From a virus, in the IMG/VR virus record IMGVR_UViG_3300008259_000347, positions 14,209 to 78,208 of that record: DNA of 64,000 bases; one strand, written 5' to 3'. Positions 675 to 42,141 of the stretch are shown piece by piece. Below the pieces are notes generated by a model that made no database searches, was not told the DNA's origin, and saw nothing but the letters and a program-made list of their open reading frames with translations. Position 1 is the first letter of the stretch; every line of letters begins with the position of its first letter. Made by a program: the position numbers and the translations under genes.

Positions 675-703
675 ATTGTAAACTACGCACTTTATTTTGT
701 CAA
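675..703 (-). promoter_or_regulatory. sigma70-type promoter for the late sigma gene (TTGACA-17-TACAAT)
   Basis: Minus strand TTGACA (703-698), 17 nt spacer, TACAAT (680-675), about 20 nt upstream of the ATG at 654. Confidence 0.75.
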
Positions 704-710
704 CTAAATA
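680..710 (+). promoter_or_regulatory. putative late promoter TACGCAC-N14-TAAATA (site 1)
   Basis: TACGCAC 684-690 and TAAATA 705-710, upstream of RBS AAGGA and ATG 730; same spacing as sites 2 and 3. Confidence 0.7.
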
Positions 711-729
711 ATGAATAAAGGAAACCAAA

Positions 730-1764
730 ATGGCAAATTTGTTTGATACATTGAAAAACGGTGCGACCACAGTAGTTAAAAATCTTAATGGACCAGGATC
801 TGGTGCTAACAATCTAGGTTCTGCTCTAGGCACTGCCGGAAGCTTATCAGGCATTTTAAATGGGCTATCTGATCCTAATAAATTACTGTCAAGTCTACGA
901 AGTTTTAACCTTCCATTGGGAGGTAACACATTCAAACCTATGGGTAGTACAGGTGTAACTTGGGCAGGCACAGCAGCAGATAAAGATTGGCGTGTAAGAC
1001 TTAGTTTACCCAATATTAGTTCTTTTAAAAGTAGTTACGTTCTGAAACCATTAGTTGCCGCAGGAGGTATGATATTTCCATATACTCCTGGCATCAGTAT
1101 TTCTCATAATGCTGGTTACGATGAACAATCGATAACACATAACAATTACCAGTTCATCACTTATCAAAATAGTAAAGTTGATAGGATCTCTATCAACGCA
1201 CCTTTTTTTGTAGAAGATGCTGTACAGGCACAATACTGGCTAGCTGCTGTTCATTACTTTAGATCAATGACCAAAATGTTTTCCGGAGCAGGCAATGGCG
1301 CAGAACAAGGCAATCCTCCTCCGATAGTGTATTTAAACGGTTACGGAGATTTTGTTTTTAAAAATATTCCTGTTGTGGTTAGTAGTTTTCAAGTCGAGCT
1401 AAGTGCTGATACAAATTATATTTCAACCAGTATGAGTAAAGATGTTTCAAGACCGGCTGGCTCTCCAGCTGCCGCACCTGTAGCACAGTCTGGAGGTTGG
1501 TTAAGTCTAGCTGGCGCAGCCTTACAAGCAGGCGGTCTTCAAAATGCTGGAGCATTTATCAGCGGATTAGATAATAAAAATAAAAGTGGCTCACCAGGAC
1601 AACAGCAACAAATACAAGCTATGAACGGTGATAGTCATGTACCAGTGAAAAGCACATTTCAAATTTCTCTTCAGCCTATATATAGTAGGCAAGCTATTAG
1701 AGAATTTAATTTACAAAGCTTTGTTCAAGGAGCTTATGTAAACAATCAAATAGGATATAATTAA
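730..1764 (+). CDS. baseplate/tail tube initiator-like structural protein
   Basis: 344 aa, first gene of the baseplate operon; FPYTP and PPPIVYLNGYG..VF.NIPVVV motifs resemble gp48/gp54-type tube initiators. Confidence 0.55.
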   Translation: MANLFDTLKNGATTVVKNLNGPGSGANNLGSALGTAGSLSGILNGLSDPNKLLSSLRSFNLPLGGNTFKPMGSTGVTWAGTAADKDWRVRLSLPNISSFKSSYVLKPLVAAGGMIFPYTPGISISHNAGYDEQSITHNNYQFITYQNSKVDRISINAPFFVEDAVQAQYWLAAVHYFRSMTKMFSGAGNGAEQGNPPPIVYLNGYGDFVFKNIPVVVSSFQVELSADTNYISTSMSKDVSRPAGSPAAAPVAQSGGWLSLAGAALQAGGLQNAGAFISGLDNKNKSGSPGQQQQIQAMNGDSHVPVKSTFQISLQPIYSRQAIREFNLQSFVQGAYVNNQIGYN

Positions 1765-2063
1765 TGGCTGTTTATAAACCTTCCAGTCCTTGGAAAGAAA
1801 CTCCAATCGAAAACAATTATCTTACCGTGCTTAGGATACGTCCAGTAAGCGCAGAGCCTGATGATTTTTTATACACTATTGAACCTCAATACACTTATCG
1901 ACCTGATTTGTTAGCCTACGATTTGTATGGTGATACAAAATTGTGGTGGGTATTCATTCAGAGAAATTTAGACGTATTACAAGATCCTGTTTATGATTTT
2001 GTAGCAGGTACAAAAATTTATATTCCCAAGGGCGATAGTTTAAAAACTGTGTTAGGATTGTAA
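1764..2063 (+). CDS. baseplate wedge protein, gp53/LysM-like
   Basis: YRPDLLAYDLYGDTKLWWVF motif; TAATG coupling to the upstream gene. Confidence 0.75.
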   Translation: MAVYKPSSPWKETPIENNYLTVLRIRPVSAEPDDFLYTIEPQYTYRPDLLAYDLYGDTKLWWVFIQRNLDVLQDPVYDFVAGTKIYIPKGDSLKTVLGL

Positions 2064-2064
2064 A

Positions 2065-4399
2065 ATGACAAATTTTGTTAAAGAACTTAAACAAGGAGCA
2101 ACCACTGCCTCTGAAAAAATATCTAAAACTGTTTCAGACATAATGACAAAAAATGGAGGATCTGCTACAGGTCCTGCATTAGATCAATTAAAAAAAGCAG
2201 TCATAGGAGGAATTCCTACTTTTGATCCTGCCAGTTTGGGTATACCGGGATTAGACGCAGTAGAGAAAAGGCCAACTAGGACCTATTATTTTAAAATCTG
2301 CTAACGGAGCCCCAGCAGAAAAATTAATTCAAACAGCGTACGGTGCTTATAATTTCTATATGGATAATTTTAAGATGACCACGATAATGGGGCTTAATGA
2401 AACAACAGGAGTTACTAATGCTACCACTGTTTCTTTTTCTGTTATCGAACCATACAGTATGGGATTATTCTTTCAGGCTTTACAGATAGGAGCATACCAA
2501 GCAGGTCATGCCAATTATACTCAAGTGCCATTATTACTAACTTTAGAATGGAAAGGCTGGACTGATTTAAACAAAGAAGTGCCATTAGTGATAAGACAGA
2601 TTCCTATCAAATTAAGAGAATTAGGAATGCAGGTAACTGGTAAAGGGTGTACGTATACTGTAGATGGATATCCTTGGAACGAACAGGCTTTATCAAAAAC
2701 ATATAATGAAGTAAAAACAGACATCGGCATAGAGTGCGACAAAGGCGGTCCTTACACTATACAAAATTTACTGCAAAGAGGCCAAAATAGTTTACAAGCA
2801 GTTTTGAATCGCAGATTACAAGAAGCAAAAAAAGGCGGCCGCGTCGATGTTCCAGATGAAATGTTGATAGTGTTCCCTACAGATTTAACATCTGATCCTA
2901 GTAGCACATCCCTTACAGGCAATGAACTAAACGAACGTGGCGCTACATCGTCCCCTAGCTCAGCAGGAGCTTCTGCTTTTTATAATAAATTAGGAGTCAC
3001 TGCCGGCGCGAACTCTACAAAAGTTCAAGGAGTAGATAATGGTACAGTTAATCTTATTGGACAAGCTCTTTTAGGGTTCAACGAAAAAATAAAAGGAGAA
3101 TCTCCATTTGCCAAAGATGCAGACAGTTACGATAAAGAAAAAGGCATTGTAAAAATTGGATCAATTGAAATTGATTTGAATAACTCTAAGTTTCATTTTA
3201 CTCAAGGTGCGTTAATTAGTGATATTATTGTTCAAGTTATATTAAACAGTGATTATGGTAGAAATGCGTTGAATCAAGCACAGCTTACTCCAGATGGACA
3301 GATAGTGTGGTTCAGAGTCGAAACTCAAGTTTATAATATTCCACAAGAGGATGGTAAAACAGGCACTAAACCAAAATGTATAGTATTCAGAGTAGTGCCT
3401 TATAAAGTTGACAGTTCAAGATTTATGCCTGTTAATTCTAAAAAACCAGGATTAGATAAATTAAAAACTCAAGCTTTAAAACAATATGATTATATCTATA
3501 CAGGAAAAAATACTGAAATTTTAAATTTTAATATTGATTTCCAAGCAGGATTTTATACAGCTATGTTTGCCGATAAAGGACAAAATTCTGAAGGCGAACG
3601 TATTAAAGAAAACACAGGTCAAGCAGCAGAGGAAGACAATAGAATTAGAACTCCAGGCAGCGCAAACAGCGGAGGAGTTGGAATTTTCCTACCAACAGTG
3701 AGAGGCACTTCGGCAGGATTACCTCAAAATCCAACACAGATCAGGTATGACAAAACAGAATCAAAAACAGCCAAACAAGGCGGAGCATCTGCTTTTGATG
3801 ATCCGGCCACAGTTGTAGCAAGGCAGTTCCAAGATGTTATAACTAATCAAGCTGATATGATTAATTTAGAGCTTGAAATTTTAGGAGACCCTTACTATAT
3901 TACTGATAGTGGTATGGGAAATTATAGTGCTAAGGAAGTTCAGGGCTATGATAACATTACTGGAGATGGATCTGTAAATTATCAAAATGGCGAAGTTGTT
4001 GTAGCAGTTAATTTTAGAACTCCTATAGATATAGATTTACAAAAAGGAATGTATTCTTTTGGAGATACTAGACCAGTAGCACAATTCAGCGGACTGTTTA
4101 GAGTGATAAGCGTTGACAATACTATCAATACAAATAAATTTACACAAGTGTTGCAGCTGGTAAGATTGCCTGGTCAAGAAGAAAAACTAGAGGAGAAATC
4201 TGCTGTATCAATAGCTAACAATGAAAGTAGTGGGTACACGGCTCAGTCACAAGCTCAAAGAAGTCCTGCTGCTCAATCGGTTAATAATTCAAGTAGTAGC
4301 TATTATGGTAGTACTACTAATCAAACAAACAATATTAATACTTCACCACCAAATCCTGGATTACCGGGAATAGTAAACACCGGAGGAAGATTCGCATAA
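2065..4399 (+). CDS. baseplate hub protein (gp27-like), broken near 2265 into ORFs 2065-2304 and 2360-4399
   Basis: The frame of the 2360 ORF stays open back to 2264 (RKGQLGPIILKSANG...YNFYMDNF). C-terminal LEILGDPYY and FSGLFRV..V...F.Q.L.LVR hub motifs; lies just before gp5. Confidence 0.6.
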
Positions 4400-6081
4400 T
4401 GGCTATTGAAACAAGACCGCAGTCAGGCAGTACACCCGTTGATCCGGGTCCGTTTTTAGCAAAAGTTGTTAGCCATTTAGACCCTACTTATATGGGTTGT
4501 TTGGAAGTTCAAGTTATGCGTGAAGTAGGAGGCGATGTTAACAGTGATGGACAGTTGACCACTGTGAAATATCTTAACCCTTTTTATGGAGTAACTGGCG
4601 CGGAGCATGTTACTGACACAGACGATTATAATAATACACAAAAAAGTTATGGAATGTGGTTTGTTCCTCCCGACCCAGGCAGCTTAGTTGTAGTAATTTT
4701 TATTGGAGGTGATCCTCGTAAAGGTTACTGGATTGGTTGTGTACAAGACGAAGGCATGAATTTTATGGTGCCAGGTATTGCTGCCACAGAGTATGTAGTA
4801 AGTGACACTAAAACAGATGATAGCGAGCGTGTTCCAGTAGCAGAATATAATAAAGTAGCTAATCAAAATACACAAGATCCTACAAAGCGCACAAAGCCAC
4901 AGCACCCTATTACAGAATTTTTAATTAAACAAGGTTTAATACTTGACGACACACGAGGCATTACAACTAGTTCAGCTAGGCGTGAAGTACCAAGTGCTGT
5001 ATTTGGAATTAGCACACCTGGACCAGTAGATAAAAACGGAAAAAGAGGTAAAATAGGCAAAGCCGAACACTTAGTCGATGGTGCGTTTGTAAGCAGACTA
5101 GGCGGCTCTACTTTTGTCATGGACGATGGCAATGACAAATTCATACGTAAAACTCCTGCTAGCGATGGCCCACCAGAATATAGTAATTTGCTCAACGGCG
5201 AGACAGACGGCGACAATACTATTCCGCACAATGAATGTATTAGATTTAGAACACGTACCGGCCATCAAATTTTGTTACACAACTCTGAAGACTTGATGTA
5301 CATTGGAAATAGTAAAGGAACTGCGTGGATAGAGTTAACTAGCGATGGCAAGATTGACATTTTTGCCGAGGATAGTATTAGTGTACACACTAAGCAAGAT
5401 CTTAACTTTTTTGCTGACAGAGACATAAATTTAGAATGTGTGAGAAATATGAATATCAAAGTCGGTAGTGAATTACATACTCACGTAATGATGGATCAAA
5501 TTTTAATTGTAGACGGCAAGCAAAAAATTCATGTAAAACAGGAAGTAGATAAAACTTATGAACTGTCATATAAACATCATGTGAAAAAAGATGTTGAAAA
5601 ACTATATGATGAAAATCATAAAGTAACAGTACTTAAAGATACAGATTTTAATACCACAGGCCATAATTGGTTTACGGCAGGAAAAACCACTGAAATCAAG
5701 AGCGGTGGTAATCATATTGAAACGGCAGCACTGATACACATGAACGGTCCTTCTGCTTCCGAAGCAGCTAAGGCAGCAGAAGCAGAACTTCCTCAGAGAT
5801 TGAAACTTCATACGTTACCTGATCAAGACGAACTGCCGTTAGTACCTTCTATTATGCGTCGAATTATCACACATGAGCCTTATCCACATCACGAAAACCT
5901 CGACCCTCTTAAAGTTAAACCTGAGCAAACTGATAGAGATATTGAAGGCAGATATGAAGATACTGACGAAGAACAGCTTAAAGATCAAGCAGAATTTTCA
6001 GTAACTATGCTTACACCTGCTAGCAGTTGGAAAACGTATAGTGCTGCTGTGGACCCATTTAGAAAGCTTCAGAGTGACTAA
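4399..6081 (+). CDS. baseplate central spike, gp5/VgrG-like OB-fold plus beta-helix, no lysozyme domain seen
   Basis: DPTYMGCLEV...YGMWFVPPDPGSLVVVIFIGGD...YWIG OB-fold; RTRTGHQILL; IHMNGP end of the beta-helix. Confidence 0.8.
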   Translation: MAIETRPQSGSTPVDPGPFLAKVVSHLDPTYMGCLEVQVMREVGGDVNSDGQLTTVKYLNPFYGVTGAEHVTDTDDYNNTQKSYGMWFVPPDPGSLVVVIFIGGDPRKGYWIGCVQDEGMNFMVPGIAATEYVVSDTKTDDSERVPVAEYNKVANQNTQDPTKRTKPQHPITEFLIKQGLILDDTRGITTSSARREVPSAVFGISTPGPVDKNGKRGKIGKAEHLVDGAFVSRLGGSTFVMDDGNDKFIRKTPASDGPPEYSNLLNGETDGDNTIPHNECIRFRTRTGHQILLHNSEDLMYIGNSKGTAWIELTSDGKIDIFAEDSISVHTKQDLNFFADRDINLECVRNMNIKVGSELHTHVMMDQILIVDGKQKIHVKQEVDKTYELSYKHHVKKDVEKLYDENHKVTVLKDTDFNTTGHNWFTAGKTTEIKSGGNHIETAALIHMNGPSASEAAKAAEAELPQRLKLHTLPDQDELPLVPSIMRRIITHEPYPHHENLDPLKVKPEQTDRDIEGRYEDTDEEQLKDQAEFSVTMLTPASSWKTYSAAVDPFRKLQSD

Positions 6082-6087
6082 TAAATA
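6082..6087 (+). promoter_or_regulatory. TAAATA late promoter box, possibly giving a leaderless mRNA
   Basis: ATAAATA-ATACT-ATG with no Shine-Dalgarno before the gp25-like gene. Confidence 0.45.
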
Positions 6088-6092
6088 ATACT

Positions 6093-6533
6093 ATGAGTTC
6101 AAGTTCACGTCTTTATGATAAAATTGTTCTGAGGGGAGACCTAACAGGACAACAAATACCTGGCACTAAAACTTACAAAGGTTTTAGCACTATTAGTCCT
6201 GACGCTAACAGTTTTGCTTTGTATGATTTGCCTTTGATTAAGCAGGATATTTTAAATCATTTTCATATAAGACAGGGCGAACGTTTAGAAAATCCAGAAT
6301 TCGGAACTATTATCTGGGATTGTTTATTCGAACCTTTAACAGAAGAAGTGAAATCACTTATTCAACAAAATGTAGAATCGATCGTGAACTACGATCCACG
6401 AGTAATTCCCGATCAAATAGTTGTTACTAGTTACGAAAGCGGCATTCAAATTGAATGTAGACTAACATATCTTCCATACAATATCAGCGAAACACTTCAA
6501 CTTAGATTCGATCAAGCTAACTCCATTTATTAA
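6093..6533 (+). CDS. baseplate wedge protein gp25-like
   Basis: IKQDILNHFHIRQGERLENPEFGTIIWDCLFEP...YDPRV is the gp25/GPW signature. Confidence 0.9.
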   Translation: MSSSSRLYDKIVLRGDLTGQQIPGTKTYKGFSTISPDANSFALYDLPLIKQDILNHFHIRQGERLENPEFGTIIWDCLFEPLTEEVKSLIQQNVESIVNYDPRVIPDQIVVTSYESGIQIECRLTYLPYNISETLQLRFDQANSIY

Positions 6534-6534
6534 T

Positions 6535-6565
6535 TAACTACGCACATTTCAAAATACGCTAAATA
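6535..6565 (+). promoter_or_regulatory. putative late promoter TACGCAC-N14-TAAATA (site 2)
   Basis: TACGCAC 6539-6545 and TAAATA 6560-6565, intergenic before the gp6-like gene. Confidence 0.7.
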
Positions 6566-6586
6566 TTGTATAATTGGGAATAGCGT

Positions 6587-9500
6587 ATGTCAGCAACTGA
6601 TAGACAAAATAGATTACTAGTAGCCGAAGACTGGAAAAGAATTTACCAGACTTTCCGTAACGCAGACTTTCAAAGCTATGATTTTGAAAATCTTCGTAGG
6701 GTGATGATTAATTACATCAGAGAAAATTATCCAGAAGATTTTAATGATTATATTGAAAGTTCTGAGTACCTTGCTCTCATCGACTTGATAGCTTTTCTAG
6801 GTCAAAGCATTAGTTTCCGTACAGATCTTAATGCTAGAGATAACTTCTTAGAACTAGCCGAACGTAGAGAAAGTGTACTGCGTCTTGCTAGATTATTAAG
6901 TTACAATCCAAAAAGAAACATTACCGGATCAGGACTATTAAAATTTAGTAGCGTAAGTACTACTCAAACAGTTATAGACTCTAATGGCCGCAATCTTTCC
7001 GGACAAAATATTTTATGGAACGATCCAGCAAATGCTAACTGGTATGATCAATTCATTAAAGTAGTAAATGCTGCGCTGCCAGCTAGTAGACAGTTTGGTA
7101 ATCCAGACGACAAAAATACTATCTACGGCATTCCTACCGAACAATACAGATTCCAAAGTGCTAATACAGATGCTCCAGTTTATACATTTCAAAAAGCAGT
7201 CGATGGTAGAACTATGCCTTTTGAAATTGTGTCTACAATTTTTAGAAATTCGCAAGACATTTACGAAGAGCCGCCTGCTGTAGGTAATAGATTGGCCTTT
7301 ATTTTTAGAAATGATGGCAAGGGCAATGCTAGTGTTAATACAGGATTTTTTCTACATTTTAGACAGGGAATTTTAAGTCAAGGAACGTTTGATATTACAC
7401 AGCCCAGTACTAGTGAAAGTATTGATATTGATGCTGTTAATATTAATAATTCAGATATCTGGTTATACAGATTAGATCAAAACGGATTAGAAACAGAATA
7501 TTGGCAACAGGTTCCAAGTTTAGAAGGCAACAATATCATCTATAACAGTCTTAAAAAATCTATTAAAAACATTTACAGTGTGATTACTAGAGCAGGCGAC
7601 AGAGTGAGTTTATTATTCAGCGATGGAACATTTGGTAATATACCAAGAGGAACCTTTAGGGTTTACTATAGAACAAGTACAGGGATAAGCTATACAATTA
7701 ATCCACGAGATATTAGAAATATCAGTATTGCTATTCCTTATATTAGTAATAACGCACAAGTAGAAACTCTAACTATTAATTTAAGTTTACAATCTAGTGT
7801 TGATAATAGTTCAGAAGCAGAAAGTAACGATAGTATTAAATCAAGAGCTCCATCTACTTATTATACACAAAATAGAATGATTACTGCTGAAGATTACAAC
7901 ATCAGTCCTCTCAGTGTTAACCAACAAGTTATTAAGATTAAAGCAGTTAATAGAAGTGCCAGCGGTATTAGTAGATATTTTGATTTAGTAGATCCTACTG
8001 GAAAATATAGTAAGACTAATTTGTTTGCTGACGACGGAATTCTTTATAAAGAAGAATTCACAGATAGTTTTAAATTCAATTATCAAAATAGAACAGATAT
8101 TGAAGCAGTAATTTACAATCAAGTTATTGAAGCACTTAAATCTGCTACTCTTAGAGATTTTTATTATAGTAACTTTACTACCGTTGTAACTGATTCTTTA
8201 TCTGTAGCATGGTATCGAAGAACAGTGGACACTAATCTATGTACAGGTTATATTAGTGATATTAGAGATTCTAGTATTGCTTATGACACTGATCCAACTC
8301 CTTATAAATTAGGAACTTTTACTAGTACTGCTCTTAGATTTATGACACCAGGTGCCTTGGTAGAATTTAGACCCCCTGAAGGATTTTATTTTGATAAAGC
8401 AGATGACAATAAACTTGTTCGAGGCACAGCCACAGTAAAAGATTCAGTGACCAGTTTGTGGTGTAAAGTAGTTGGTGTATCCGGTGACGGCACCGCAGGC
8501 GGTGACGGTATTTTTGCCGACGGCACAGGGCCACTCAGCTTTAATGACATCGTACCACAGGGTGCTATAATCTATCAAATTATTCCTGCTTGGAGAACAA
8601 CTTTAGATAATAGCACAGTATCTACAATGATAGACTTAATTTTTGCTAATAAGCCTTTTGGGTTACGATACGATACACAAAGTCGAACATGGAAGATTGT
8701 GTTTGAAGTTAACTTGAGTATCAATAGCAGATTTAGTCTAGGTAAGCAAGGCGACAACAGTAATCAACAATTAGATGCTAGTTGGCTGTTATTGTTTACT
8801 ACTGATACTGAATTTTATACTGTAAAATCTAGACTTTTACGTTATATTTTTGAAAGTGCTAATCAAGTTAGATTCTATTTTGATGCTAGCGATAAAATTT
8901 ACGACACACGAAATAATACCACAGTTAAGGACAAAATTAGAATTTTAAATATCAATACTCAGCCTGATAACACTATTCCTTTTACCATAGATAGAGACTG
9001 GGAAGTAAGTGAAGAATTTAAAGGTCTTGACGGTTATGTTGATACTAAAAAGATACAAGTTACTTTTAGTGACACTGATGACGACGGTGTAGTAGATAAT
9101 CCGACTATATTTGAAGATCTAGTTGCTCCTAATGTTGCCCCTTCTAATAAAAAAATTGTGTTAGAAAAATATGAAATATCAACAGGACAAGAAGATTATC
9201 GTTGGATGAATAATAATCAAACAGTTATTTTCACATCATCTTTAGATTCTTTTCAAAACCTAGGAATAATTCCAGATGGCCAATATGTATATGCTGAAGA
9301 TGCGGATGCGGTTTTTAAATTTAGTCTAGCAAGTGCTACTTTTGAGTTGTCTACTGATTATAAAGTTTATGTAGGACGCTCTGGATTTAAATTTCAGTAC
9401 ATTCATAATGCTGATTATGAATCAAGAATTGATCCAGGAATTACAAATTTAATAGACATTTATGTGCTCACTAAACAATACGATCAAAATTTTAGACAAT

Positions 9501-10063
9501 GGCTTAATGGTTCGTTAGACACTGAACCATTGCCTCCAAGTCAGGACACATTGTTTAGTTTAATGAGTACAGAGTTGAATAAAATAAAGTCAATCAGTGA
9601 TGAGATAGTGTATCATCCAGTAAAGTACAAAATTCTATTTGGAGAAAAAGCTACTCAAGATGTACAGGCAACATTTAAAATTGTTAAAAATTCAGAATTA
9701 GTAATTAGTGACAATGATATTAAATCAAGTGCTGTATCTGCTATCAACGAATTCTTCAGTTTAGAAAACTGGGAATTTGGAGAAACTTTTTATTTTACAG
9801 AATTAGCTACCTATGTAATGAATAGACTAGCACCATATGCTGTAAACTTTGTTATTGTTCCTAAGCAAACAGGTCTTTCTTTCGGAGCATTGTACGAAAT
9901 TAAATGCGAAAAAGATCAAATTTTTGTAAACGGTGCTACCGTAAATGATTTAGAAGTTATCACAGCTATCACAGCAAGTAAGTTAAAAGCAAGTGGGGCT
10001 ATTATAGCAAGTCGCACAGCAACAGGACAACAAATTATAACTAGCGCAGGAATTGAAGACTAA
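6587..10063 (+). CDS. baseplate wedge protein gp6-like (extended, 1158 aa)
   Basis: DFENLR...DFNDYIESS..LIDLIA...FL..AERRESVLRLA..L.YNP; FSDGTFG..P; ES.DSIK.RAP..Y.TQNRMITAEDY. Confidence 0.88.
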   Translation: MSATDRQNRLLVAEDWKRIYQTFRNADFQSYDFENLRRVMINYIRENYPEDFNDYIESSEYLALIDLIAFLGQSISFRTDLNARDNFLELAERRESVLRLARLLSYNPKRNITGSGLLKFSSVSTTQTVIDSNGRNLSGQNILWNDPANANWYDQFIKVVNAALPASRQFGNPDDKNTIYGIPTEQYRFQSANTDAPVYTFQKAVDGRTMPFEIVSTIFRNSQDIYEEPPAVGNRLAFIFRNDGKGNASVNTGFFLHFRQGILSQGTFDITQPSTSESIDIDAVNINNSDIWLYRLDQNGLETEYWQQVPSLEGNNIIYNSLKKSIKNIYSVITRAGDRVSLLFSDGTFGNIPRGTFRVYYRTSTGISYTINPRDIRNISIAIPYISNNAQVETLTINLSLQSSVDNSSEAESNDSIKSRAPSTYYTQNRMITAEDYNISPLSVNQQVIKIKAVNRSASGISRYFDLVDPTGKYSKTNLFADDGILYKEEFTDSFKFNYQNRTDIEAVIYNQVIEALKSATLRDFYYSNFTTVVTDSLSVAWYRRTVDTNLCTGYISDIRDSSIAYDTDPTPYKLGTFTSTALRFMTPGALVEFRPPEGFYFDKADDNKLVRGTATVKDSVTSLWCKVVGVSGDGTAGGDGIFADGTGPLSFNDIVPQGAIIYQIIPAWRTTLDNSTVSTMIDLIFANKPFGLRYDTQSRTWKIVFEVNLSINSRFSLGKQGDNSNQQLDASWLLLFTTDTEFYTVKSRLLRYIFESANQVRFYFDASDKIYDTRNNTTVKDKIRILNINTQPDNTIPFTIDRDWEVSEEFKGLDGYVDTKKIQVTFSDTDDDGVVDNPTIFEDLVAPNVAPSNKKIVLEKYEISTGQEDYRWMNNNQTVIFTSSLDSFQNLGIIPDGQYVYAEDADAVFKFSLASATFELSTDYKVYVGRSGFKFQYIHNADYESRIDPGITNLIDIYVLTKQYDQNFRQWLNGSLDTEPLPPSQDTLFSLMSTELNKIKSISDEIVYHPVKYKILFGEKATQDVQATFKIVKNSELVISDNDIKSSAVSAINEFFSLENWEFGETFYFTELATYVMNRLAPYAVNFVIVPKQTGLSFGALYEIKCEKDQIFVNGATVNDLEVITAITASKLKASGAIIASRTATGQQIITSAGIED

Positions 10064-19000: not shown

Positions 19001-22000
19001 GTTTATAGTATAAAGAAAAAGTATGACACTATAAGCAAGACATTTACTAACACCTATTACTATTGGGTAAAAAACAGCACTATTGTTCCTAACAAAGAAG
19101 GTAGAATTTTACCAGCAGAATCTATTTCAAGATTAATTTCTGATCCAAAGAGTTACGGGTATCCATGTTTAGCACTACTAGGACCTGATAGCTTTAGTTT
19201 AGTAAACTGCGATAGCTACTTAAAAGATAAAGATATTGTATTAAGTGTTCAATATTGGATCACTGACAACAAAGAAGGTAATGCTCACACACAGTGGAAA
19301 ATCATAAGTGAAAATATTAACACAGTTATTCCTTATGAAATAGAGCAAAAATGGTTAGACAGTTTGTTAGGTAAAGACAAAAATGGTCGCACCGTACCAG
19401 ATCTCAGATTACCAGTAAAACAACGTTTTGGTATTGAAAACAGACCAAGACAAAGTATGTTCTTGAATAGAATAGAAGCTCTTAAACAGTTTATTGAACG
19501 TACAAATACTGTACTAAAAGATAATTTAATTGTTGACGAATTTGATTTAACACCTTTGGCTAGATTTGAAGAAAAACCCAGTGCTGTAACTGGATTATGG
19601 GACGTTACAATCGATACAGATCCAGAATTAAGATTTGTAGGTACTAGTCAATTATCGCAAATTGCGTTATCTCCTGTGATTGAAAATGGTAAAATTATTG
19701 ACGTGGAAGTAATTAGTCCCGGTAAAGGCTATGTAAATTCTCCTCCAGTTCGTATAACTGGTAAAGGCACAGGAGCGGAAATTAAGATTATTCTTTCTGA
19801 TACTGGATCTGTACAGACAGTTGAAATTTTATCACAAGGCATTGGATATAAAAACGACACTGTATTAACAGTTCGTCCTTTTAGTGTGTTAGTCTTAAGC
19901 GATAGCGAAAGTTATGATAAGTGGACAATTTATCACTATAATAGATTAGACAGGTCGTGGAGTAAAGCCAGAACACAAACTTTTGATGTGACTAAATTCT
20001 GGAATTATATTGATTGGTATTCATCTAATTATAATCAGTTTACTAAAGTAAATCATATTGTAGAAAATACCTACGAGTTGGCTTCATTAGAATCTAATAT
20101 AGGCAGTATTGTAAAAGTTAAGAATGTAGGATCTGGCGGGTGGTTATTGCTTGAGAAATACAGTAATGTTGTAACCATTGATTATACACAAAATTATAGA
20201 GTGGTTGGAAGACAGAATGGAACTATTAAATTCTTAGATTTACTATATAACTTTAAAAACCAATCTTTAGGATTTGATGGACCTCTTTACGATTCTGACC
20301 AGTACGACACTGTGCCTACAACAGAATTATCTATAATCTTAGATACAATTAAGACAAAGATATTAGTAGATAATTTAAGAGTAGAATATCTAAAACTATT
20401 CTTTGCCAGCGTAAGATATGCTTTATATGAACAGCCTTTCTTAGATTGGGCTATGAAGACTAGCTTTGTAAAAGCCACTCATAATGCCGGCGAATTGAAA
20501 CAAAAAATTACTTTTAACAGTGATAATTTAGAAGATTTTGAAAATTATGTTAAAGAAGTAAAACCATTCAGAACAAAGGTTAGAGAATATGTCAGTGCTT
20601 ATACTAGAGTAGAAAATGCTCCACTGTCAGTAACAGACTTTGATTTGCCGCCAATTATCGACGATGATTTTAAAATTCTTCCTTTGAGTGCTGTACTTAG
20701 TGAAAATTATTCTATAGGATCTTCGTATGCTCAACTACTTGATTATCCTTGGAGACATTGGTATGATAATGCCAGTTACAGTGTAGAAACACTGGAACTT
20801 GTAGACGGTGGTACAGGGTATGTTGAACCTCCTGTAGTTAAAATAATAGACGATTATGGTATAGTAACTTCTACTAACGAGTTAAAATCTAATTTTGATG
20901 GTCCTAATAGTTTTTGGATTTTAGAAGAAGGCACTATGAAGATTGTGGCTACCGGCTTGCCGTACCACAGTTACGGTAATCAAGAAGCTGAACACGTAGC
21001 CACAGATCAAGGGTATAGTCAAATTTTACCTTTAAGAGGCGGCACGTATACAGCTGGCGGACACGCTGATATTCCAGAAGGTATCATAGGATATTGGTTA
21101 AATGGAGTAGCAGTATATAATCCTAGTGCTGAAAATCTTGCTCCTCAAGGTTTAGAATCTATAACAGATTACAATTATAATGCTGCTTATGCTAGTACTC
21201 AAGTATTAGAATACACATTTAATCAGGATCAAACAGGAGGCATAGCAGATCAAGACGGACGATATTCTTATAGAGATTTTAGTTTTAGAAGTGCTTGGTT
21301 ATCTGGTATCGGTAACGATTTAGGAGATATCGATAGAATAGACACATCTGAAATTCCTTATCTAAGATCCGGCCTCGAACATGCTGACGGACACAGTAAA
21401 ATATTAGGGTTTGCTTTAGATGGTTACCCAATATATGGACCTAACGGTTACAGTTTAGCTACAGATCCTACAAGCGGAATTTCTAGAATGACTTCTAGTT
21501 ATGATTTAAAAGTTCCATCTTATAGAACAGGTGTGATAGCAGATTTACAAACATATCCTATGGGCATGTTTATACAAGACTATACATACACAGGTAACGG
21601 AACCTTAGACAAACACAACGGAAGATATTGTATTACTCCTGATTATCCTAACGGAACTTATGCTTATTTTGTTACTACAACAAATGCTGGAACTCCAGTT
21701 TATCCTTATGTAGTTGGACCAACTTTCTTTGGAGATGCTGCTCCTCAAGATCGTAATGATGCTAGCAATGGAAAAGGAACACCTCCAAGAACTTATAGTA
21801 TCTTTAACAGTAAAGCTATTCAAGCTACAGCTAAGGCTTATATTACTAATGGTAAAGTTACCAGAATCACATTAATTACTGCTGGTTCTGGTTATTTAAA
21901 AGCTCCTAGGGTAGAGTTTGATGGCGGGTTAGACACTAATATTATTCATAGGCCTGCTCAAGCAGTGGCCATGTTAAAGAGTAATGTGGTTAGATCTAAT

Positions 22001-25000
22001 AAAATAGTAATTAAGTTTGATAGAATAACCAGAAATTATGTTGTTACTGAGTTGTCGCAAACAGAAACATTTACAGGAACAGGTAGTAGAAAACAATTTG
22101 CGTTAAGATTTAGTCCAGTGCTAACTGTTGGTAATACTATAGTCAAAATAAATGGCAATGAAATTCTAAGAGATGATTACGCATTGTCTGTTAAGAAAAC
22201 CACAGTAAAAGGATTTACAAGTTATTACGGTGTCCTTACTTTCGAAAATGCTCCTGTTGTTAATAGTAGTATAGAAATCACTTACGATAAGAATTTTGAA
22301 CATTTATCTGCTGCTGATAGAATTAATTTCTATTACAATCCGCAAACTGGCCAATTAGGTAAAGACCTAGCACAGTTAATGACAGGTATTGATTATGGCG
22401 GCGTAATCGTCAGCGGATTAGGATTAAGTCTAGGCGGCGGTTGGGATAGTCAACCTTGGTTTAACGACGGCTGGGATTCTTATGACGTAGGATTTACTGA
22501 TTACATCGTTACTGTGAGCGATAGTACTTACGTATATGATTTACCTTATACTCCTGCTATAGGAGAACAAATTAACGTCTATGTAAATGGTGTAAGAATT
22601 GATGACGAGTATTTTGACAGTTACAATGGTGTAACAGTACAACCTAACGGTAGAACTAGTGCTCCTGAAGGTAGGGCAATGCAGACTTGGACAGGTGACG
22701 GATTAAGTAAAACCATAGAATTACCAAATCTGACCAGTGCTGTACCAGTCGATATTAATACTGGCGACAAAGTAATTTTCCGTAAGAGTACTAGTGATGG
22801 TAGTATTAACCCAGATCCAAAGAGTTTTGATACTCAACTACAAGGCGGAAATTTAAGTTATACAACTGCCACAGGATTTGCTCCTGATGATATTTTAGTA
22901 GAAGGTGGTGGTAGATTTATTACTCCTGAAACTAGTCATGCTCCAGAAGAAATAGTGCCTGGACATATTACTGACACACTGAATATTAAGGTATTCAGAG
23001 TACCTCGTTCAGGTTCATCTACGATTGTAAGTAAAAATTACATTTGTGACGGTGTAACTACTGAATTCAGTATCGGACAATTTCCTAACAATACAGCAGG
23101 AGTGTTTGTTAACTTAGATAATGTTATTTTACAATTAGACACAGACTATACTATTGACTGGCAATCAAAGACAGTGAATATGATTGTAGCACCAGCAGAT
23201 AAGAAAATTATTAATATTTCTAGTTTTGGTGCCGCTAGCGAAAATATTTTAGATTCAAATTATTTTATTGCTGACGGTAGCACTTCAGATTATATTACAA
23301 ATGCTCCTTGGCCACAATTATACTCAGACGATGACTTCCAACAAAGTATAGATCGTTTAGGATCTGTAGTTCTTGTTAATAATCAAGCAGTAGAGTATGA
23401 ACTGTTTAGAACAGACGAGTCATACGAAACTACTGGATTTGTGGGAATAAGATTCCCACAGCCTCCTGATTATGATGCTATCATTAATTATATTATGACA
23501 GGAGATGCTAACACTAGTATATCAATTGTCAATTCTGTTACTTTAGACATTGATGGTTCTACTTCTAGTTATAGTTTAGACAGTGTTCCTTTAGACATGT
23601 CTAAGCCGTATGAAAACTACATGCTAGTAACTAACAATGGAGACTTATTACGTCCTATGGATTCAATCTATTGGACATTAAAAGATAATGAATATCTATA
23701 CACTATACCTACTTATAAAGTACTACCATTTACTTTAGACCCAAGCACTATCAAAGTCTATATTAATGGAGAACAGTTAAGTTCGTTGGATTATACTTTA
23801 AACAATGTGAACTTAACTATTGAAATTCGAGACTTTGTTTATGTAGAAAGCGGTATATTAACACTGGTAAGATTTGAAGATAGTGATTATACAATCAGTG
23901 GAAACAACATTATATTTGATACAGCACCATCTGGAAATGTAGAAGTTACTACTTTCTTTAATCATTCTGTTCAAAACATTATAAGAACCAAAGAATTTTT
24001 TAATATTACTTCCGCTTTAGTTCCTGGCAGTATTTCATACTATCAGTATCAGAGTATGCGAGGAGGTTCTTTAAGATTGTTTAGAACTACACAAGCAGAC
24101 GATTATGTATGGATAGCCAAGAATAGAAAGTTATTAGTTCATAGTATAGATTACTATCTAGATGATGATTATAGAACCGTTAAATTCAAAGATGCTTTTG
24201 AAGAAACTGATGTGATTGACGTAATTCTATTTGGTGATAAAAATGTAACCAATGGATTTGGATTCATGCAGTTTAAGGATATGCTGAACAGAACTCATTA
24301 CAAGAGAATCAGCAAAGACAAGAGCACACGACTAGCAAAAGATTTAAAACAAAAGGATCTTACCATAGAAGTAGAAAATGGTGCTGTATTAACTGAGCCT
24401 AATCGTACACTAAATCTTCCAGGTATTATTGAAATTAATGGAGAACGTATCGAGTATTTGACTAAAACTGGCAACGTTTTAGGACAATTGCGTAGAGCTA
24501 CATTAGGCACAGGTAGTCCTGCTATCCATAAACTTACTTCTGTAGTGTTAGATATTGGTCCTACTGAAACTATACCTTACAATGATGAATTTATTGTAGA
24601 ATCTAGTATTGGTGACGGTAGCACTAAAAACATTAGATTAAGTTATGCTCCTACTAAAGTTGATGTAGACTGGTATACAGACACTATTCCAGCCAATAAC
24701 GGACGCAGCGATGAAATTGAAGTGTTTGTCGGCGGCTATAGATTGAAGAAAAATGCTTATAGTTTATTTGGAGAGAATAATCAGTATCCAGATAGCCCAG
24801 AAGGTGATAGCCAATACGAAGCTGAATTCAGTGTCGATGGAACCGAACAAGTACGATTAACTAACGAAGTAGCTGAAAATGTTAAGATTACTGTTATTAA
24901 GAAAGTTGGAAGAGTGTGGGAAGATCCTGCTCCAGCAGAAAGAGTATTTAAAAACATTCAAGCAGGCAGCGGCGGCGCAACTTTTGATGTGACTAAAAAC

Positions 25001-25363
25001 GGCACTACCTACGTGTTGACTATGAAACGTGGCGGCATTAACTATACTGTAGGTGATACTTTAATAATATTGGGGTCAAGATTGGGCGGTGTTACTCCTG
25101 AAAATGATATCACTATAACAGTTACAGACGTATCTGATGATAGTTCGTCTAGTATCTTAACTTATACATATCAAGGCCAAGGTGCTAGATCTGGATATAC
25201 TACTTCAAGTTTATCAGATTCTGACAATGCAGTAGCTAATTTCTTGAAAAACACTGAGGCAGTTTGGCCACAATACTTGGCTGATAAATATCAATATGTA
25301 TTATTAACTGAAACCGGCGAAAGTATTACTGTAGACGGCGACGAACCCCTGGAGCTCGATTAA
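10063..25363 (+). CDS. giant baseplate wedge/fibre-associated virion protein, probably one gene >5000 aa broken near 17213 (ORFs 10063-17217 and 17156-25363)
   Basis: gp7-like N-terminus (NLLPRFYRT..NKKFL.ATLDQL). FG-GAP propeller blades continue across the break. CBM-like W...Y..GD.V repeats, a YHYH domain and DG.T..F Ig-like repeats. Confidence 0.7.
16610..18490 (+). repeat. about seven FG-GAP/integrin-alpha-like beta-propeller blades
   Basis: FGTKVSISKNGKYLA, FGAETAFSSDGKWLAIAAP, FGSKMTF, FGYDMKMSGDGSKLVISAP, FGESLSISDSGSHLAVGS, FGHYVEF, YGTSISVGSNNLAVSAP. Confidence 0.7.
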
Positions 25364-28051
25364 TGGCAAAAATATCAGATTTAGTAAAAGTTACCACACC
25401 TAATGACGCAAATGTCTTTCCAATTAGTGATGGGTTAACTACTAAGAAAATTAGTTTCTTAGATCTAAAAACATCTATTAATACAGTAGCTTCAGGAACT
25501 CAGTTGGGCACAATTAAGATTGGTACAGGGCTTAGTATAGACAATACAGGCACAGTAAGTGTTTTGAATTTTGATGCTTTTACATTAGCGCCAGCTACAC
25601 AGAATCAACTAGGCGGTGTAATTATAGGCGAAGGATTAACTGTAAACGAAGCAGGAGTACTTACTTCTGCGTACACTTTGCCCATAGCTACTCCTACAGT
25701 ACTAGGTGGAATAAAAGTTGGGGAAGGCCTTACTATTTCCAACGGCATACTTTCCACGATTCCGATCAGTGTAGACGCATTTGATGATTCCGGAATAACA
25801 ATTGGGAATCAAAGTGATTTCTTATTTTATGTAGAAAATAGTAATACACCAACTATCAAAGATGATGTAAACGGTGTAATAGTTCTAAGTGTAAGAGATA
25901 CTAGTATGGCCGGTAATCTTGCTGACATACGTCTGATATCTCGTGCTAATACAGTAGGGCTAGGAGACGAAACTGCTCCTGCTTTAATTCCAGATTTTAG
26001 CGGTCAAGCAATGAATTTAGGAACTCCAAGTATAAAATGGAGTAAAGTATACGCAAATAATTTCATTGGTAATGTAACTGGTACAGCAGCACGTAGTACA
26101 GAAGCAGACAGTTTATTAGTAGGGCTAGATTATTTGCCTGCTAGTACCAGTGCTATAACCGATACTATTGTAGCAAGAGACAGTATAGGCAACATCAATG
26201 CTAATAACTTTATTGGTAATGTTACAGGCAATATTACAGGTAATGCCAGCACTGCTACACAACTTCAAACATCGAGATTAATTAATGGCGAGCCATTCAA
26301 CGGCACACAGAATATTACTATAACTGCTGCTAACCCTCAAGCATTAACAAGAGGAAATTACGTCACAGGCGGCTCTGATACTTACGATGGTAGTAGTGCT
26401 AGTACTTGGAGTGTGGTGTTTCTTTTGATGGATCGCAGAACATACAACTTCCTGCTAATCCAGCAAGAGTCGACGAACTTGCAGGTAGTATAAAAATGTG
26501 GGGAAGTGCTACTCCTCCCGCTAATTGGTTATTATGTAACGGACAAAGTGTAAGTAAGTTTGTGTATGCGACTTTATTTTCTAGAATAGGTTATACATAT
26601 GGCGGCAGTGGAGATTTCTTTAATGTTCCAAATCTAACTAATAGATTCGCAGTCGGAGCAGGCGGGTTATACGATGCCAATTCAACAGGCGGTAATAAAG
26701 ATCAGTTAGTTATAAGTCATTCACATACCGCAAGTGCTAGTTCTACGTTTACAGGCAATACATTACCTAATCATAGTCATTCATTTACAGCTTATGTGAA
26801 CGATCCGGGGCACTCTCATACTACGGTTCAAATGATCGGCGATAACAATATTGACGGGGTCGATAGTACTACTAGAAGATCGGGCGACCATCATAACGAA
26901 ACAAGAAATACAGGAACATCTACAACAGGTATATCTGTAACAGGAAGTATCGGGTCTAGCAATTCTGGTGTACCTAGTGGTTCGGTTAGCACATCTATTT
27001 CTATCGGATCCACCGGTAGTAGCGGCACAAATGCTAATCTTCCTCCATATATTGGAGTGTATTACATTATTAAAGCAAGCGACGACGGCAGCGGTGGTGG
27101 CACATTACAAGCAGGTACAGGAATTGATATACAAACATCGGGTAGTTATAGTATAATTTCTAGCACAGTAAACACTAGTGTGTTCTTGCCTACAACAGGC
27201 GGCTCAATGAGCGGATTTTTAACGCTACATAGTAATCCGTCTAGTGCTAATCATGCTGCTACTAAAGCTTATGTAGATAATCAAATTGCTGCTGTTCCTT
27301 CTAGCAATGATAAACTGCCATTAACAGGCGGTAGCTTATCTGGACCATTGTACTTACATGCTAATCCAGCTGGCGCACTTCAAGCAGCCACTAAAGCGTA
27401 TGTAGATAATCAAATCGCGCAGATAAGCAATTATCAAAAAGTCCTAGCATATAAACATGTCGGATGGGGTGTAGGTTACAATACCTACGGTGACCATTAT
27501 TGGGAAGTGTTATCTACAACACATCAGTATATTAGATTCGGCGAGCAATATATGGAAATAAGTCTTACTCCACAGGCCACAAATTCTAGGATATCAGTAT
27601 TTGTAGAAATAGCTTTCCAGAATCAGTACGTAGCCCATTTTCAAATTAGACGAGCATATGGAAACGGCGCATTTAATCCAACTATAACTAATACTAGTCC
27701 GGTAAATTATCATATGGAAACGGCGCATTTAATCCAACTATAACTAATACTAGTCCGGTAAATTATTTTGCTGCTAAAACTTATAGCGGAAATTTAGGCC
27801 TTTCAGGACATAACATAGCCAACTCTAATTATACACATTATGGTCGAATTGAAAATGCTCAAGGAGCCATGGAAAGAGAAACTATAAGTTATACTGAATT
27901 CACTAACAATAATACTCAACTGCGTACTTTTAGAGTAGCAGCTTGCGGACAATGGGCTAATAGTGGCACTTGGTTAAGTGTCAATGATAGAAAATTGTAT
28001 AGAGATATGCCAACTTATAGCACGATGACAATTGTCGAATGGTTATCATAA
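25363..28051 (+). CDS. long tail fibre with tail-collar domain, broken near 26414 and at 27655-27766 (ORFs 25363-26493, 26406-27743, 27869-28051)
   Basis: Three LGG(I/V)K(I/V)GxGL repeats; GNASTATQL..SRLINGE.FNGT.NI; collar GSIKMW...WLLCNGQ.VS...Y.TLF..IG.TYG...FNVPNL; two AATKAYVDNQIA repeats. Removing one 56-bp duplicate joins the last two ORFs in frame. Confidence 0.75.
27655..27766 (+). repeat. exact 56-bp tandem duplication causing a frameshift
   Basis: CATATGGAAACGGCGCATTTAATCCAACTATAACTAATACTAGTCCGGTAAATTAT at 27655-27710 and 27711-27766. Confidence 0.97.
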
Positions 28052-28068
28052 TAATTTAGGAACAAATA

Positions 28069-28374
28069 ATGACTTCGTATATTTTTACAATCGGGGACGC
28101 AATTCATTCATTATTACCAAACGCTGAATTCAGTGTTTCAGGTAATGATTATGATCGAATTGAATGGTATTCGGAAAATATTCCCAAGCCAACGTTAGCC
28201 GAGATTGATGCCGAATTACAAAGATTACAAGCAGATCATGATAGGAAAGATTATCAAAGACAACGAGTAGAAGCTTACCCTAGTATTGAAGAACAGTTAG
28301 ATTTGATGTTTCATGGCGGCTATGACGTATGGAAAGCACAGATTCAAGCAATTAAAGATCAGTTTCCTAAGTAA
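28069..28374 (+). CDS. tail fibre assembly/chaperone-like protein
   Basis: AIHSLLPNAEF...PKPTLAEI...YQRQR.EAYPSIEEQLD, a small-protein type that commonly follows phage fibres. Confidence 0.6.
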   Translation: MTSYIFTIGDAIHSLLPNAEFSVSGNDYDRIEWYSENIPKPTLAEIDAELQRLQADHDRKDYQRQRVEAYPSIEEQLDLMFHGGYDVWKAQIQAIKDQFPK

Positions 28375-28403
28375 AATACGCACTTTATACTTTTAGGTAA
28401 ATA
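28373..28403 (+). promoter_or_regulatory. putative late promoter TACGCAC-N14-TAAATA (site 3)
   Basis: TACGCAC 28377-28383 and TAAATA 28398-28403, upstream of ATG 28424. Confidence 0.7.
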
Positions 28404-28423: not shown

Positions 28424-29035
28424 ATGCAAGGTAGAGATTTATCAGGAATACATATCGAAGGGCATATTAAAATTTATGACCCTACTACACAAGAGATATT
28501 CATTAACAAGCGTAATGCTATTCATTATGAAAATATGAGTATCGCTCTTGCCGAATCTATTGCTAATTCAGGACAAGGATTTATTTACGAACTTGTTTTT
28601 GGCAACGGAGGAACTACTGTTGATCCTACTGGTATAATTACCTATCTGACTCCTAATAGTACAGGTACTAATGCTGCCTTATATAATCAAACTTACAGTA
28701 AAGTTGTTGATGATCGCAGTGTAAGTAACGTAGATCCAATTCGTAATAGAATAGAAACAAGACATATCACTGGTGTAAACTACACAGATGTGTTTGTAAC
28801 CTGTTTGTTGGATTACGGCGAGCCCACAGGACAAGAAGCGTTTGATAATACCAGTGATAATAAAAGTGATTATGTGTTTGACGAACTAGGATTAAAAAGT
28901 TATAGCAACACAGGCACTAGCAGATTATTAACTCATGTAATTTTTCACCCTGTTCAAAAAAGTTTGAATAGATTAATTCAAATTGATTATACTGTGAGAA
29001 TACAAAGTCTAACAGGTTTAAGTGAGGTTCAATAA
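28424..29035 (+). CDS. virion structural protein (baseplate/fibre attachment)
   Basis: 203 aa; FDELGL...LLTHVIFHPVQKS.NR.IQIDYT; heads the short-fibre operon. Confidence 0.55.
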   Translation: MQGRDLSGIHIEGHIKIYDPTTQEIFINKRNAIHYENMSIALAESIANSGQGFIYELVFGNGGTTVDPTGIITYLTPNSTGTNAALYNQTYSKVVDDRSVSNVDPIRNRIETRHITGVNYTDVFVTCLLDYGEPTGQEAFDNTSDNKSDYVFDELGLKSYSNTGTSRLLTHVIFHPVQKSLNRLIQIDYTVRIQSLTGLSEVQ

Positions 29036-31167: not shown

Positions 31168-31177
31168 GGATTAATCA

Positions 31178-33046: not shown

Positions 33047-33052
33047 TAAATA
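33047..33052 (+). promoter_or_regulatory. TAAATA late promoter box
   Basis: Intergenic CTAAATA followed by RBS AAGGGG and ATG 33075; lacks the TACGCAC element. Confidence 0.5.
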
Positions 33053-41554: not shown

Positions 41555-42141
41555 TGAAAGAACTTGATTTTTATTCTGAAAATTTTTGGTTTTCACAAAT
41601 AGATCAACACGGAGATGTAGACAACTATGGTGAAGATTATTATGCTTATAAGTTTTTCAAAAATGTAATTTTGAATCTAACAGATATTCCTAATAATGGG
41701 CATATTGTTGTGATGGGAACCCACAACTGTGTAAGTTTTAATTTACTTTGCGAACACTTTGGAAAAGATAGGTGTATAGGATATGATATAGCAAATCCTA
41801 CAAATCATCCTTGCGTGAAAGTAAAAAATATTTTGGAAGTAACTGACAATATTCCTATAAGTTTTGTACATAATGATATAGGTAATTACGGTTTTACTCC
41901 TACTGCAAAATTTTATGCTCAACAATGGGCAGCAAATAATGTAGTAGAAGGCGGTTATTTTTTGGGTAGAAATAATTTGAATAGAGCAAAACTACCTATT
42001 GAGCAGTATATGGAAAGATTAGGTTTTCTTAATACAAATATGTTAGCATTAACAGGCGTTTTTAATTTATCTAATATTGCTTACAGAGAATTAGAAGGAC
42101 ATATGATATCAAAAAAAGTAGGCATAAGACATTATGTATAG
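41554..42141 (+). CDS. methyltransferase-like protein (degenerate Rossmann fold)
   Basis: IVVMGT...CIGYDI...FVHND...VVEGGYF pattern. Confidence 0.45.
   Translation: MKELDFYSENFWFSQIDQHGDVDNYGEDYYAYKFFKNVILNLTDIPNNGHIVVMGTHNCVSFNLLCEHFGKDRCIGYDIANPTNHPCVKVKNILEVTDNIPISFVHNDIGNYGFTPTAKFYAQQWAANNVVEGGYFLGRNNLNRAKLPIEQYMERLGFLNTNMLALTGVFNLSNIAYRELEGHMISKKVGIRHYV

Follow-up and report, generated by a model that had tools for sequence, protein, structure and literature searches.

The DNA examined here is a 64,000-nt window (bases 14209–78208 of the 78,208-bp contig IMGVR_UViG_3300008259_000347) from an uncultured freshwater T4-related jumbo phage. Three structural operons in this window begin with a bipartite element, TACGCAC-N14-TAAATA, consisting of an upstream heptamer (hereafter the box) and a downstream hexamer that resembles the core of T4 late promoters. 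We regard the element as a module-specific variant of the T4-type late promoter. What the sequences establish is the motif with its fixed spacing, its conservation in relatives, a limitation to four gene starts and a gp55-type sigma encoded alongside. The explanation that we favour, with a probability of roughly 0.45, is that the three sites belong to a conserved subclass of T4-type late promoters in a clade of aquatic jumbo phages, in which the box would dock a phage-encoded protein. This proposal comes from sequence comparison, and the alternatives to it are considered below together with the evidence that bears on each of them.

Three bipartite sites at fixed spacing

The pattern TACGCAC-N14-TAAATA has exactly three matches in the window, all on the + strand, at 684–710 (site 1), 6539–6565 (site 2) and 28377–28403 (site 3). 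No match arose in 100 dinucleotide-preserving shuffles of the window, and a further copy was sought in the whole 78,208-bp contig and not found. At site 1 the extended box (AACTACGCACTT, predicted −35 to −24) occupies 681–692, with the heptamer at 684–690, and TAAATA, a T4-type −10 core (predicted −11 to −6), lies at 705–710, giving a predicted start near 716 ahead of the ATG at 730. Site 2 has its box at 6536–6547 (heptamer 6539–6545; extended form AACTACGCACAT) and TAAATA at 6560–6565, with a predicted start near 6571 and the ATG at 6587. The corresponding positions at site 3 are 28374–28385 for the box (heptamer 28377–28383; extended form AAATACGCACTT), 28398–28403 for TAAATA, near 28409 for the predicted start and 28424 for the ATG.

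The original prediction, made from the window alone, had named these three strings and described them as intergenic, with exactly 14 nt between the two halves and 19–21 nt to an ATG. All of this was borne out: the strings are present where they had been placed, the spacing is confirmed by the pattern match, and the distance from the end of TAAATA to the ATG is 19, 21 and 20 nt at sites 1, 2 and 3, respectively, with a purine-rich ribosome site between. From the gene coordinates, site 1 separates the late-sigma gene, which is divergent, from the gene at 730, and sites 2 and 3 begin 6 and 3 nt past the stop codon of the preceding gene. Three other TAAATA sites that had been named as lacking the heptamer do lack it, namely 6082–6087 (+ strand, 5 nt before the gp25-like ATG at 6093, a leaderless geometry), 33047–33052 (+ strand, 22 nt before the ATG at 33075) and the site at 56770.

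The heptamer by itself occurs six times in the window against 4.15 expected, and six or more copies were reached in 25 of 100 shuffles, which is chance level. Since the heptamer alone is not enriched, the signal resides in the pairing of the box with TAAATA at a fixed spacing. Tolerating up to two mismatches in the pattern added only two sites, a total of five against 2.78 expected (chance level). Similarity among the three sites is confined to the box and the −10, and the spacers differ. Because the regions outside these two elements are unlike, the three sites are not copies of one cassette. An Rfam scan of the window gave no family at gathering score.

Conservation of the box and its spacing in relatives

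We examined 80 loci from IMG/VR that had been found by the gp6-like protein and not by the motif, 70 of which have enough upstream DNA; counts from IMG/VR, here and below, are lower bounds that refer to the matches listed. When both strands of the 80 loci were searched, pairs of the heptamer (up to one mismatch) with TAAATA occurred 63 times at N14, three times at N13 and once at N23, with none at any other spacing from 6 to 24. The pairs are always on the gene strand and are orthologues of sites 1 and 2. The spacing is hence conserved in relatives, with N14 strongly preferred (63 versus 4).

Upstream of the gp6 orthologues (57–100% amino acid identity), TAAATA is found 16–22 nt before the ATG in 70/70 loci. 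A heptamer with up to two mismatches stands at N14 in 47/70 loci, corresponding to 31/45 distinct upstream sequences, while the count is one at N13, one at N15, seven at N18 and zero elsewhere from 8 to 22. Orthologues of site 3 were found with the protein encoded at 28424–29035; among 54 distinct upstream regions the relaxed box is at N14 in 19 and at N13 in two, with none at N10–12 or N15–19. In many more distant relatives of site 3 the promoter is located within the end of the preceding gene and has no box. Site 1 orthologues keep TAYGCAC-like boxes at N14. The originally proposed second element, fixed in position some 30 bp ahead of the predicted start, is consequently upheld, being conserved at the same spacing and common to non-orthologous promoters.

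The heptamer itself was predicted too narrowly. It is exact at the three window sites, but in relatives it is one form of a degenerate box (TRYNCAS), which appears as TATGCAC, TACACAC, TGCGCAC, TACTCAC, TACCCAG, ATAGCAC and the one-base-shorter CTAGCAC (TAGCAC forms). Conservation is highest at the CA of the heptamer and at the T two bases past its end. At the orthologous sites relatives show ATAAATA or TATAAATA. Concerted change of box variants across the sites of one genome was not seen, the variants being site-specific, and inspection by eye gave no clear correlation between presence of the box and a −10 without the 5′ TA, as compensation would have it.

Loci beside sigma genes of 39–89% identity also carry box-like sequences at N13–14. 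ATAATAGCACATTTT is found in 44 distinct sequences of the group with 67–76% sigma identity, and ACAGTGC followed by TTAAT at a locus whose sigma is 46% identical; at the most distant sigma loci the box-like sequences are suggestive only.

The box is restricted to baseplate, tube-junction and tail-fibre genes

A search of six contigs (618,707 bp) for the relaxed box at N14 gave 14 places, 12 of them orthologues of four gene starts and two inside coding sequence. The four starts are site 1, gp6, site 3 and a 360-aa tail-tube-like gene, a tube paralogue situated behind the tube gene and a terminator hairpin. Many other TAAATA sequences before genes in these contigs have no box, including those of the sheath, tube and head-related genes in two relatives, G001 and G002. 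An exact-pattern scan of IMG/VR gave at least 122 matches, and among those listed 71 are followed by the gp6-like gene, 23 by the site-1 gene, 15 by the tube-like gene and 13 by something else. These 13 comprise one before a baseplate-hub gene homologue (in this contig the hub gene has no box), one cut gp6 and about 10 with no gene behind. Judged by these positions, the boxed sites form a limited subclass that goes with the operon starts of baseplate, tube-junction and tail-fibre genes. The distinct late promoter class of the original prediction therefore survives as a real and conserved subclass, but not as the general late promoter of the phage, since most TAAATA promoters, here and in the related contigs, are box-less.

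Restriction of this kind might also reflect negative or timing control, with the box as an operator at which a phage protein bound at −30 would hold down or delay the low-copy baseplate and fibre genes relative to head, sheath and tube. In keeping with this, all genes marked by the box encode low-copy virion parts, the sheath, tube and head-related promoters of G001 and G002 are box-less, and the box overlaps the promoter, as repressor sites often do. However, the site is asymmetric and its orientation and distance from the −10 are strict, which suits a factor in register with the polymerase better than a dimeric repressor. Moreover, there is no palindrome at the three sites and a candidate repressor was not found, so that we regard the operator explanation as unlikely.

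TAAATA as a predicted −10 element and comparison with T4 late promoters

The adenines flipped in the open complex of T4 are those at −12, −9 and −8, and TATAAATA spans −13 to −6 (PMC7892883). On T4 geometry, TAAATA is predicted to lie at −11 to −6, the heptamer at −32 to −26 and the extended box (AA-n-TACGCAC-w-T) at about −35 to −24. The tube-like gene has its ATG 5 nt after TAAATA in 14 of the 15 matches listed and 4 nt after it in the remaining one. A leaderless message would begin at the +1 predicted from T4, the A of the ATG, and the −10 reading of TAAATA is therefore supported. The layout TAAATA-5 nt-ATG without a ribosome site is seen at the gp25-like gene here and at the tube-like gene in G001 (approximately 142,360–142,390) and G002 (97,687–97,700). 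Box and TAAATA are 11 nt apart before the tube-like gene of G001, compared with 14 nt in G002 and elsewhere. The boxes of G001 are the weakest, as if constraint had relaxed in that lineage.

The premise that T4 late promoters lack a second upstream sequence element agrees with the literature, in so far as the available text of PMC2988020 reports no conserved sequence at their −35 position, where T4 gp33 touches only the backbone (PMC7892883). The sites described here share with T4 late promoters a gp55-family sigma, whose gene adjoins site 1, the absence of region 4 and a TAAATA core 16–22 nt before structural-gene ATGs. They differ in that a subset of the promoters bears a box, at a constant distance of 14 nt upstream. 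In addition, the 5′ TA of TATAAATA is missing at all three (CTAAATA, CTAAATA and GTAAATA), which carry only the 6-bp core TAAATA, preceded by AC, GC and GG, of the 8-bp box that T4 has about one helical turn ahead of the start. A further difference lies in the sigma, which has an insertion of about 140 residues and is apparently too short to include a clamp-binding tail.

A bipartite layout with an upstream element near −30 to −35 could suggest a promoter for host sigma70, or for another region-4-bearing sigma, with the heptamer as −35 and TAAATA as −10; some relatives, CBB among them, encode an additional RpoD-like sigma (PMC5259590). This is very improbable given the details of the sites, where matches to the hexamers are poor. 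The spacing between hexamers would be 14–15 bp rather than 17 ± 1, TAAATA does not end in the T of TAnnnT, TACGCA matches TTGACA at only 3/6 positions, relatives have the gp55-type sequences ATAAATA or TATAAATA, and the genes are structural.

A gp55-like sigma with a conserved insertion

The N-terminal part of the late-sigma gene occupies 1–654 of the window on the − strand, with a likely start at ATG 654 and an in-frame GTG upstream at 690; the full gene is at 14041–14898 of the contig. The product has 285 residues from the first GTG, and most homologues begin at M13. It matches the profiles phrog_12791 (1.8e-78) and phrog_234 (2.5e-24), and gp55 in the Protein Data Bank (PDB; 7d7c_F, E 8e-6). 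An AlphaFold (AF2) model built from 55 sequences has a pLDDT of 92.6 and a pTM of 0.81, and its best structural match is T4 gp55 (7d7d_F; VIA Z 14.7, rmsd 2.8, 120 residues aligned, model residues 17–272). The protein has no region 4. That the phage encodes a gp55-type sigma is borne out by the phrog_12791, 7d7c_F and 7d7d_F matches. Many sigma homologues are 420–980 aa long and match the query in two or three separate stretches, which suggests inteins or other insertions in some relatives.

The N-terminal helix resembles the N-terminus of T4 gp55, and homology to gp55 resumes at about residue 163. Between the region-1.2-like helix and the sigma-2 core is an insertion of approximately 140 residues (about 33–172), topologically where sigma70 has its non-conserved region. 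The insertion is highly conserved: the best 120 sigma clusters are 82–100% identical, and R106, H112 and F135 are invariant. A fold match for the insertion was sought with Foldseek and VIA-align on the full-length model, which matched the sigma-2 core only, and by an ESM Atlas search with residues 33–172, in which all scores were below 0.9.

The chain ends 13 residues past the equivalent of gp55 residue 152, after which T4 gp55 has a 21-residue linker and the clamp-binding motif (PMC7892883). Because the chain is too short for both, the sigma presumably lacks a T4-type clamp tether. A clamp-independent way to strengthen promoters is plausible given this short C-terminus, which leaves no room for the T4 linker and motif. 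In G001 a 243-aa protein is encoded after the DNA polymerase; a clamp match for it was sought in PDB sequences and none was found.

It is conceivable that the sigma itself reads the box, through an insertion reaching the duplex near −30 and contacting bases there. A single rigid protein would in that case recognise both halves of the promoter although it has no region 4, and the box would be an optional −35 for selected promoters. The insertion is modelled confidently as one body with the core (pLDDT 92.6, pTM 0.81), its conservation extends to the invariant R106, H112 and F135, the near-invariant spacing suits a rigid reader, a separate reader was not found, and the sigma appears to be without a T4-type clamp-binding tail. 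The distribution of the protein argues in the other direction. PA5oct, Atu_ph07, 121Q and others share the long sigma (40–47% identity over about 90% of the length) without the promoter class, and the sigma, which the original suggestion named as the reader alongside a co-activator, is not supported in that role, PA5oct in particular having the same long form (46% identity) but no such promoters. Furthermore, most late promoters in the same genomes are box-less, and the insertion has no recognisable DNA-binding fold, whether searched within the full-length model or, as residues 33–172, in the ESM Atlas. Recognition by the sigma itself hence seems unlikely.

How the box may be read

From the features described above we infer the role of TAAATA as a −10, the start site, the binding of a protein to the box, activation and the candidates for the binder. 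In the proposed scheme, (A)TAAATA would be the −10 element, read on the unwound non-template strand by the gp55-type sigma on host core RNA polymerase, and transcription would start about 6 nt after TAAATA. The upstream half, AA-n-TA(C)GCAC-w-T, would occupy roughly −35 to −24, a stretch contacted by sigma region 4, T4 gp33 or T4 MotA. A protein of the phage, kept on the polymerase at a set distance from the sigma, may dock to it as an asymmetric site, and the docked protein would raise or time initiation at boxed promoters only. The asymmetric sequence, strict orientation and near-fixed spacing are the reasons why a monomeric reader in register with the sigma fits the sites. The sigma insertion, a DsbA-like protein and a separate factor not seen here are the candidates for this reader.

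A parallel in layout is the T4 middle promoter, which likewise has an asymmetric box near −30, in register with the −10, and a reader other than region 4. In T4 the −10 is of the sigma70 type and lies 11–13 bp downstream of the MotA box, the sigma being appropriated by AsiA and MotA. The two differ in that the −10 here is the gp55-type TAAATA, ending in A and not in the T of TAnnnT, and the genes are late structural ones. The TACGCAC-like box also differs from the MotA box.

Among the 147 small proteins of G001, no transcription-factor PHROG was found besides the sigma and a DsbA-like protein, the contigs being fragments. The latter is an 87-aa protein encoded at 31,776–32,039 (L206:11776–12039), matching PF11126 with 25 bits and phrog_639 at 2e-11. 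T4 DsbA is similar in being a small DNA-binding protein linked to late promoters; it binds weak A/T-rich sites overlapping two of them and has no in vitro effect in the available account (PMC2988020). In G001 the gene directly precedes the DNA polymerase gene, whereas T4 dsbA precedes the gp33 gene. The DsbA-like protein was not seen in the present contig, itself a fragment. Homologues are present in PA5oct (annotated as a structural protein), Atu_ph07, SCTP-2 and Phosso. As the homologue is also found in these box-less relatives, unlike what is expected of a clade-specific reader, we rejected it in that capacity, and it is left as a weak candidate only. Two other candidates were discarded: a 52-aa open reading frame after the sigma gene, which is conserved in G004, the closest relative, but in none of G001, G002, G003 and G005, and the phrog_3636 'DNA binding protein' of G001, which has a ferritin-like domain.

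The box might also function without a dedicated reader, either as a DNA-shape or affinity element for a non-specific contact by core polymerase or by a gp33-like or DsbA-like protein, or as a weakly constrained inherited sequence. Core polymerase and gp33 of T4 contact upstream DNA without sequence specificity (PMC2988020, PMC7892883), T4 DsbA binds weakly at sites overlapping two late promoters (PMC2988020), G001 encodes the 87-aa DsbA-like protein, and the box is degenerate across relatives. Against this, what four non-orthologous promoters have in common, at a single spacing, is a G/C-containing core in AT-rich surroundings, and this speaks for base-specific reading; the DsbA-like protein also occurs in PA5oct, Atu_ph07, SCTP-2 and Phosso, which are without the class. 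We therefore consider a box without a dedicated reader quite unlikely.

Cultured relatives

RaK2-like jumbo phages such as CBB and GAP32 belong to the same phage group and have the same −10 core. The published late-promoter prediction for the CBB/GAP32 group, as far as the text available goes, gives ATAAATA with AT-rich sequence downstream and nothing more (PMC5259590), and the corresponding portion of the PA5oct paper describes sigma70-like motifs only (PMC7318152). In the accessible literature on PA5oct, gp55 of jumbo phages and TAAATA or ATAAATA late promoters, the supplementary promoter tables of CBB and PA5oct apart, we found no description of this box.

The gp6 gene has no promoter directly upstream in five of the six cultured phages examined (PA5oct, Atu_ph07, SCTP-2, 121Q and RaK2), and in CBB it is preceded by a terminator and then GATAAATA. 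In PA5oct, 77 TAAATA boxes stand before genes, with GATAAATA as consensus and no common upstream box. Box-like sequences at N13 are found there only at two baseplate promoters, ATTAGCAT at the orthologue of site 1 and TATGTAG at gp25. They stand ahead of gp347 and gp353 (record positions near 70,700 and 65,600). We treat these two cases of possible remnants as a lead, not a finding.

Points against a docked reader

Several observations weigh against the docking of a phage protein at a conserved box. No reader was identified among the proteins of a contig that covers about 22% of the genome, and a Pfam scan of its 47 proteins (a partial genome) gave no MotA, AsiA or region-4 domain. The pattern TRYGYAS-N12–16-TAAATA showed no excess over a reversed control in five complete genomes (PA5oct, Atu_ph07, SCTP-2, CBB and 121Q); counts of the relaxed pattern in the five cultured genomes were 3 versus 4, 1 versus 2, 0 versus 1, 2 versus 1 and 0 versus 2. 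At the gp6 loci the heptamer has three or more mismatches in 23/70, and its information content in this unbiased set is moderate, at about 0.2–1.4 bits per position. G001 departs from the common spacing, with 13 nt at site 1 and 11 nt before the tube-like gene. Box-less orthologous promoters also keep their own upstream sequences, and part of the conservation of the box may for this reason be inertia. Runs of RNA carrying sequence of the phage were sought and none was found, three lake metatranscriptome runs sharing next to no words with it.

At site 1 there is a further complication, in that the box lies inside the spacer of a sigma70-type promoter on the − strand (TTGACA-17-TACAAT, 675–703; 11/12 matches to consensus), which faces the late-sigma gene. 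TGTCAA is retained in the orthologous site-1 spacers. Since the box is located in its spacer, part of the conservation near site 1 is due to the divergent promoter. The site 1 late promoter and the sigma70-type promoter of the sigma gene are back to back, and occupancy of either could exclude the other.

Genomic context

The nearest named relatives of the phage are PA5oct, Phosso, Atu_ph07, SCTP-2, 121Q, RaK2, CBB and GAP32, with 40–47% identity to the jumbo-phage proteins for the sigma and 38–44% for the gp6-like protein; a near-identical record was sought in the phage collection and none was found. CheckV completeness is 22% for the contig itself and 51% for a relative of 180,861 bp, from which the genome is estimated at about 350 kb. 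Members of the clade abound in lakes and seas, with more than 8,000 sigma homologues at E ≤ 1e-10, and contigs of 290–330 kb are available from it. Gene order is T4-like, running through portal, prohead protease, gp46/gp47-like nuclease, gp55-like sigma, gp53-, gp5-, gp25- and gp6-like baseplate genes, two giant virion proteins and fibre genes.

The three sites do stand at structural operon starts, as first proposed, the downstream genes being baseplate, wedge, hub and fibre genes, all on the + strand. Site 1 precedes an operon at 730–6533 that encodes a virion protein, a gp53-like wedge protein (1764–2063), a gp5-like hub/lysozyme (4399–6081) and a gp25-like wedge protein (6093–6533). The operon after site 2 (6587–27743) comprises a gp6-like wedge gene (6587–10063), genes for giant virion proteins (10063–17217 and 17156–25363) and genes for fibre-like proteins (25363–27743). 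Site 3 is followed at 28424–33040 by genes for a phrog_11259 protein (28424–29035) and tail-fibre/collar-like proteins (29035–31167 and 31178–33040). The two giant proteins, of 2,384 and 2,735 aa, are encoded by adjacent genes (10063–25363, + strand) after the gp6-like gene, and both match phrog_10938. Behind the fibre genes, at 42134–54067 (+ strand), are about eight genes with a radical SAM domain, one of them with a SPASM domain, in a region of strong GC skew.

Implications

T4 late transcription is the textbook case of a −10-only promoter, activated by a sliding clamp without sequence specificity. If the docking proposal is true, the gp55 promoter family has evolved sequence-specific upstream recognition, and late genes would be divisible into separately controlled groups, a layer that T4 itself is without. 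A bolder version, which we hold to be doubtful, is that a gp55-type sigma gained the ability to read −30 through its insertion or a flap-bound partner, in effect a detached region 4, and that this would set the baseplate and fibre genes apart and replace clamp-coupled activation. PA5oct is a cultured relative with box-like remnants at two matching promoters. The box also provides a practical marker for baseplate operon starts.

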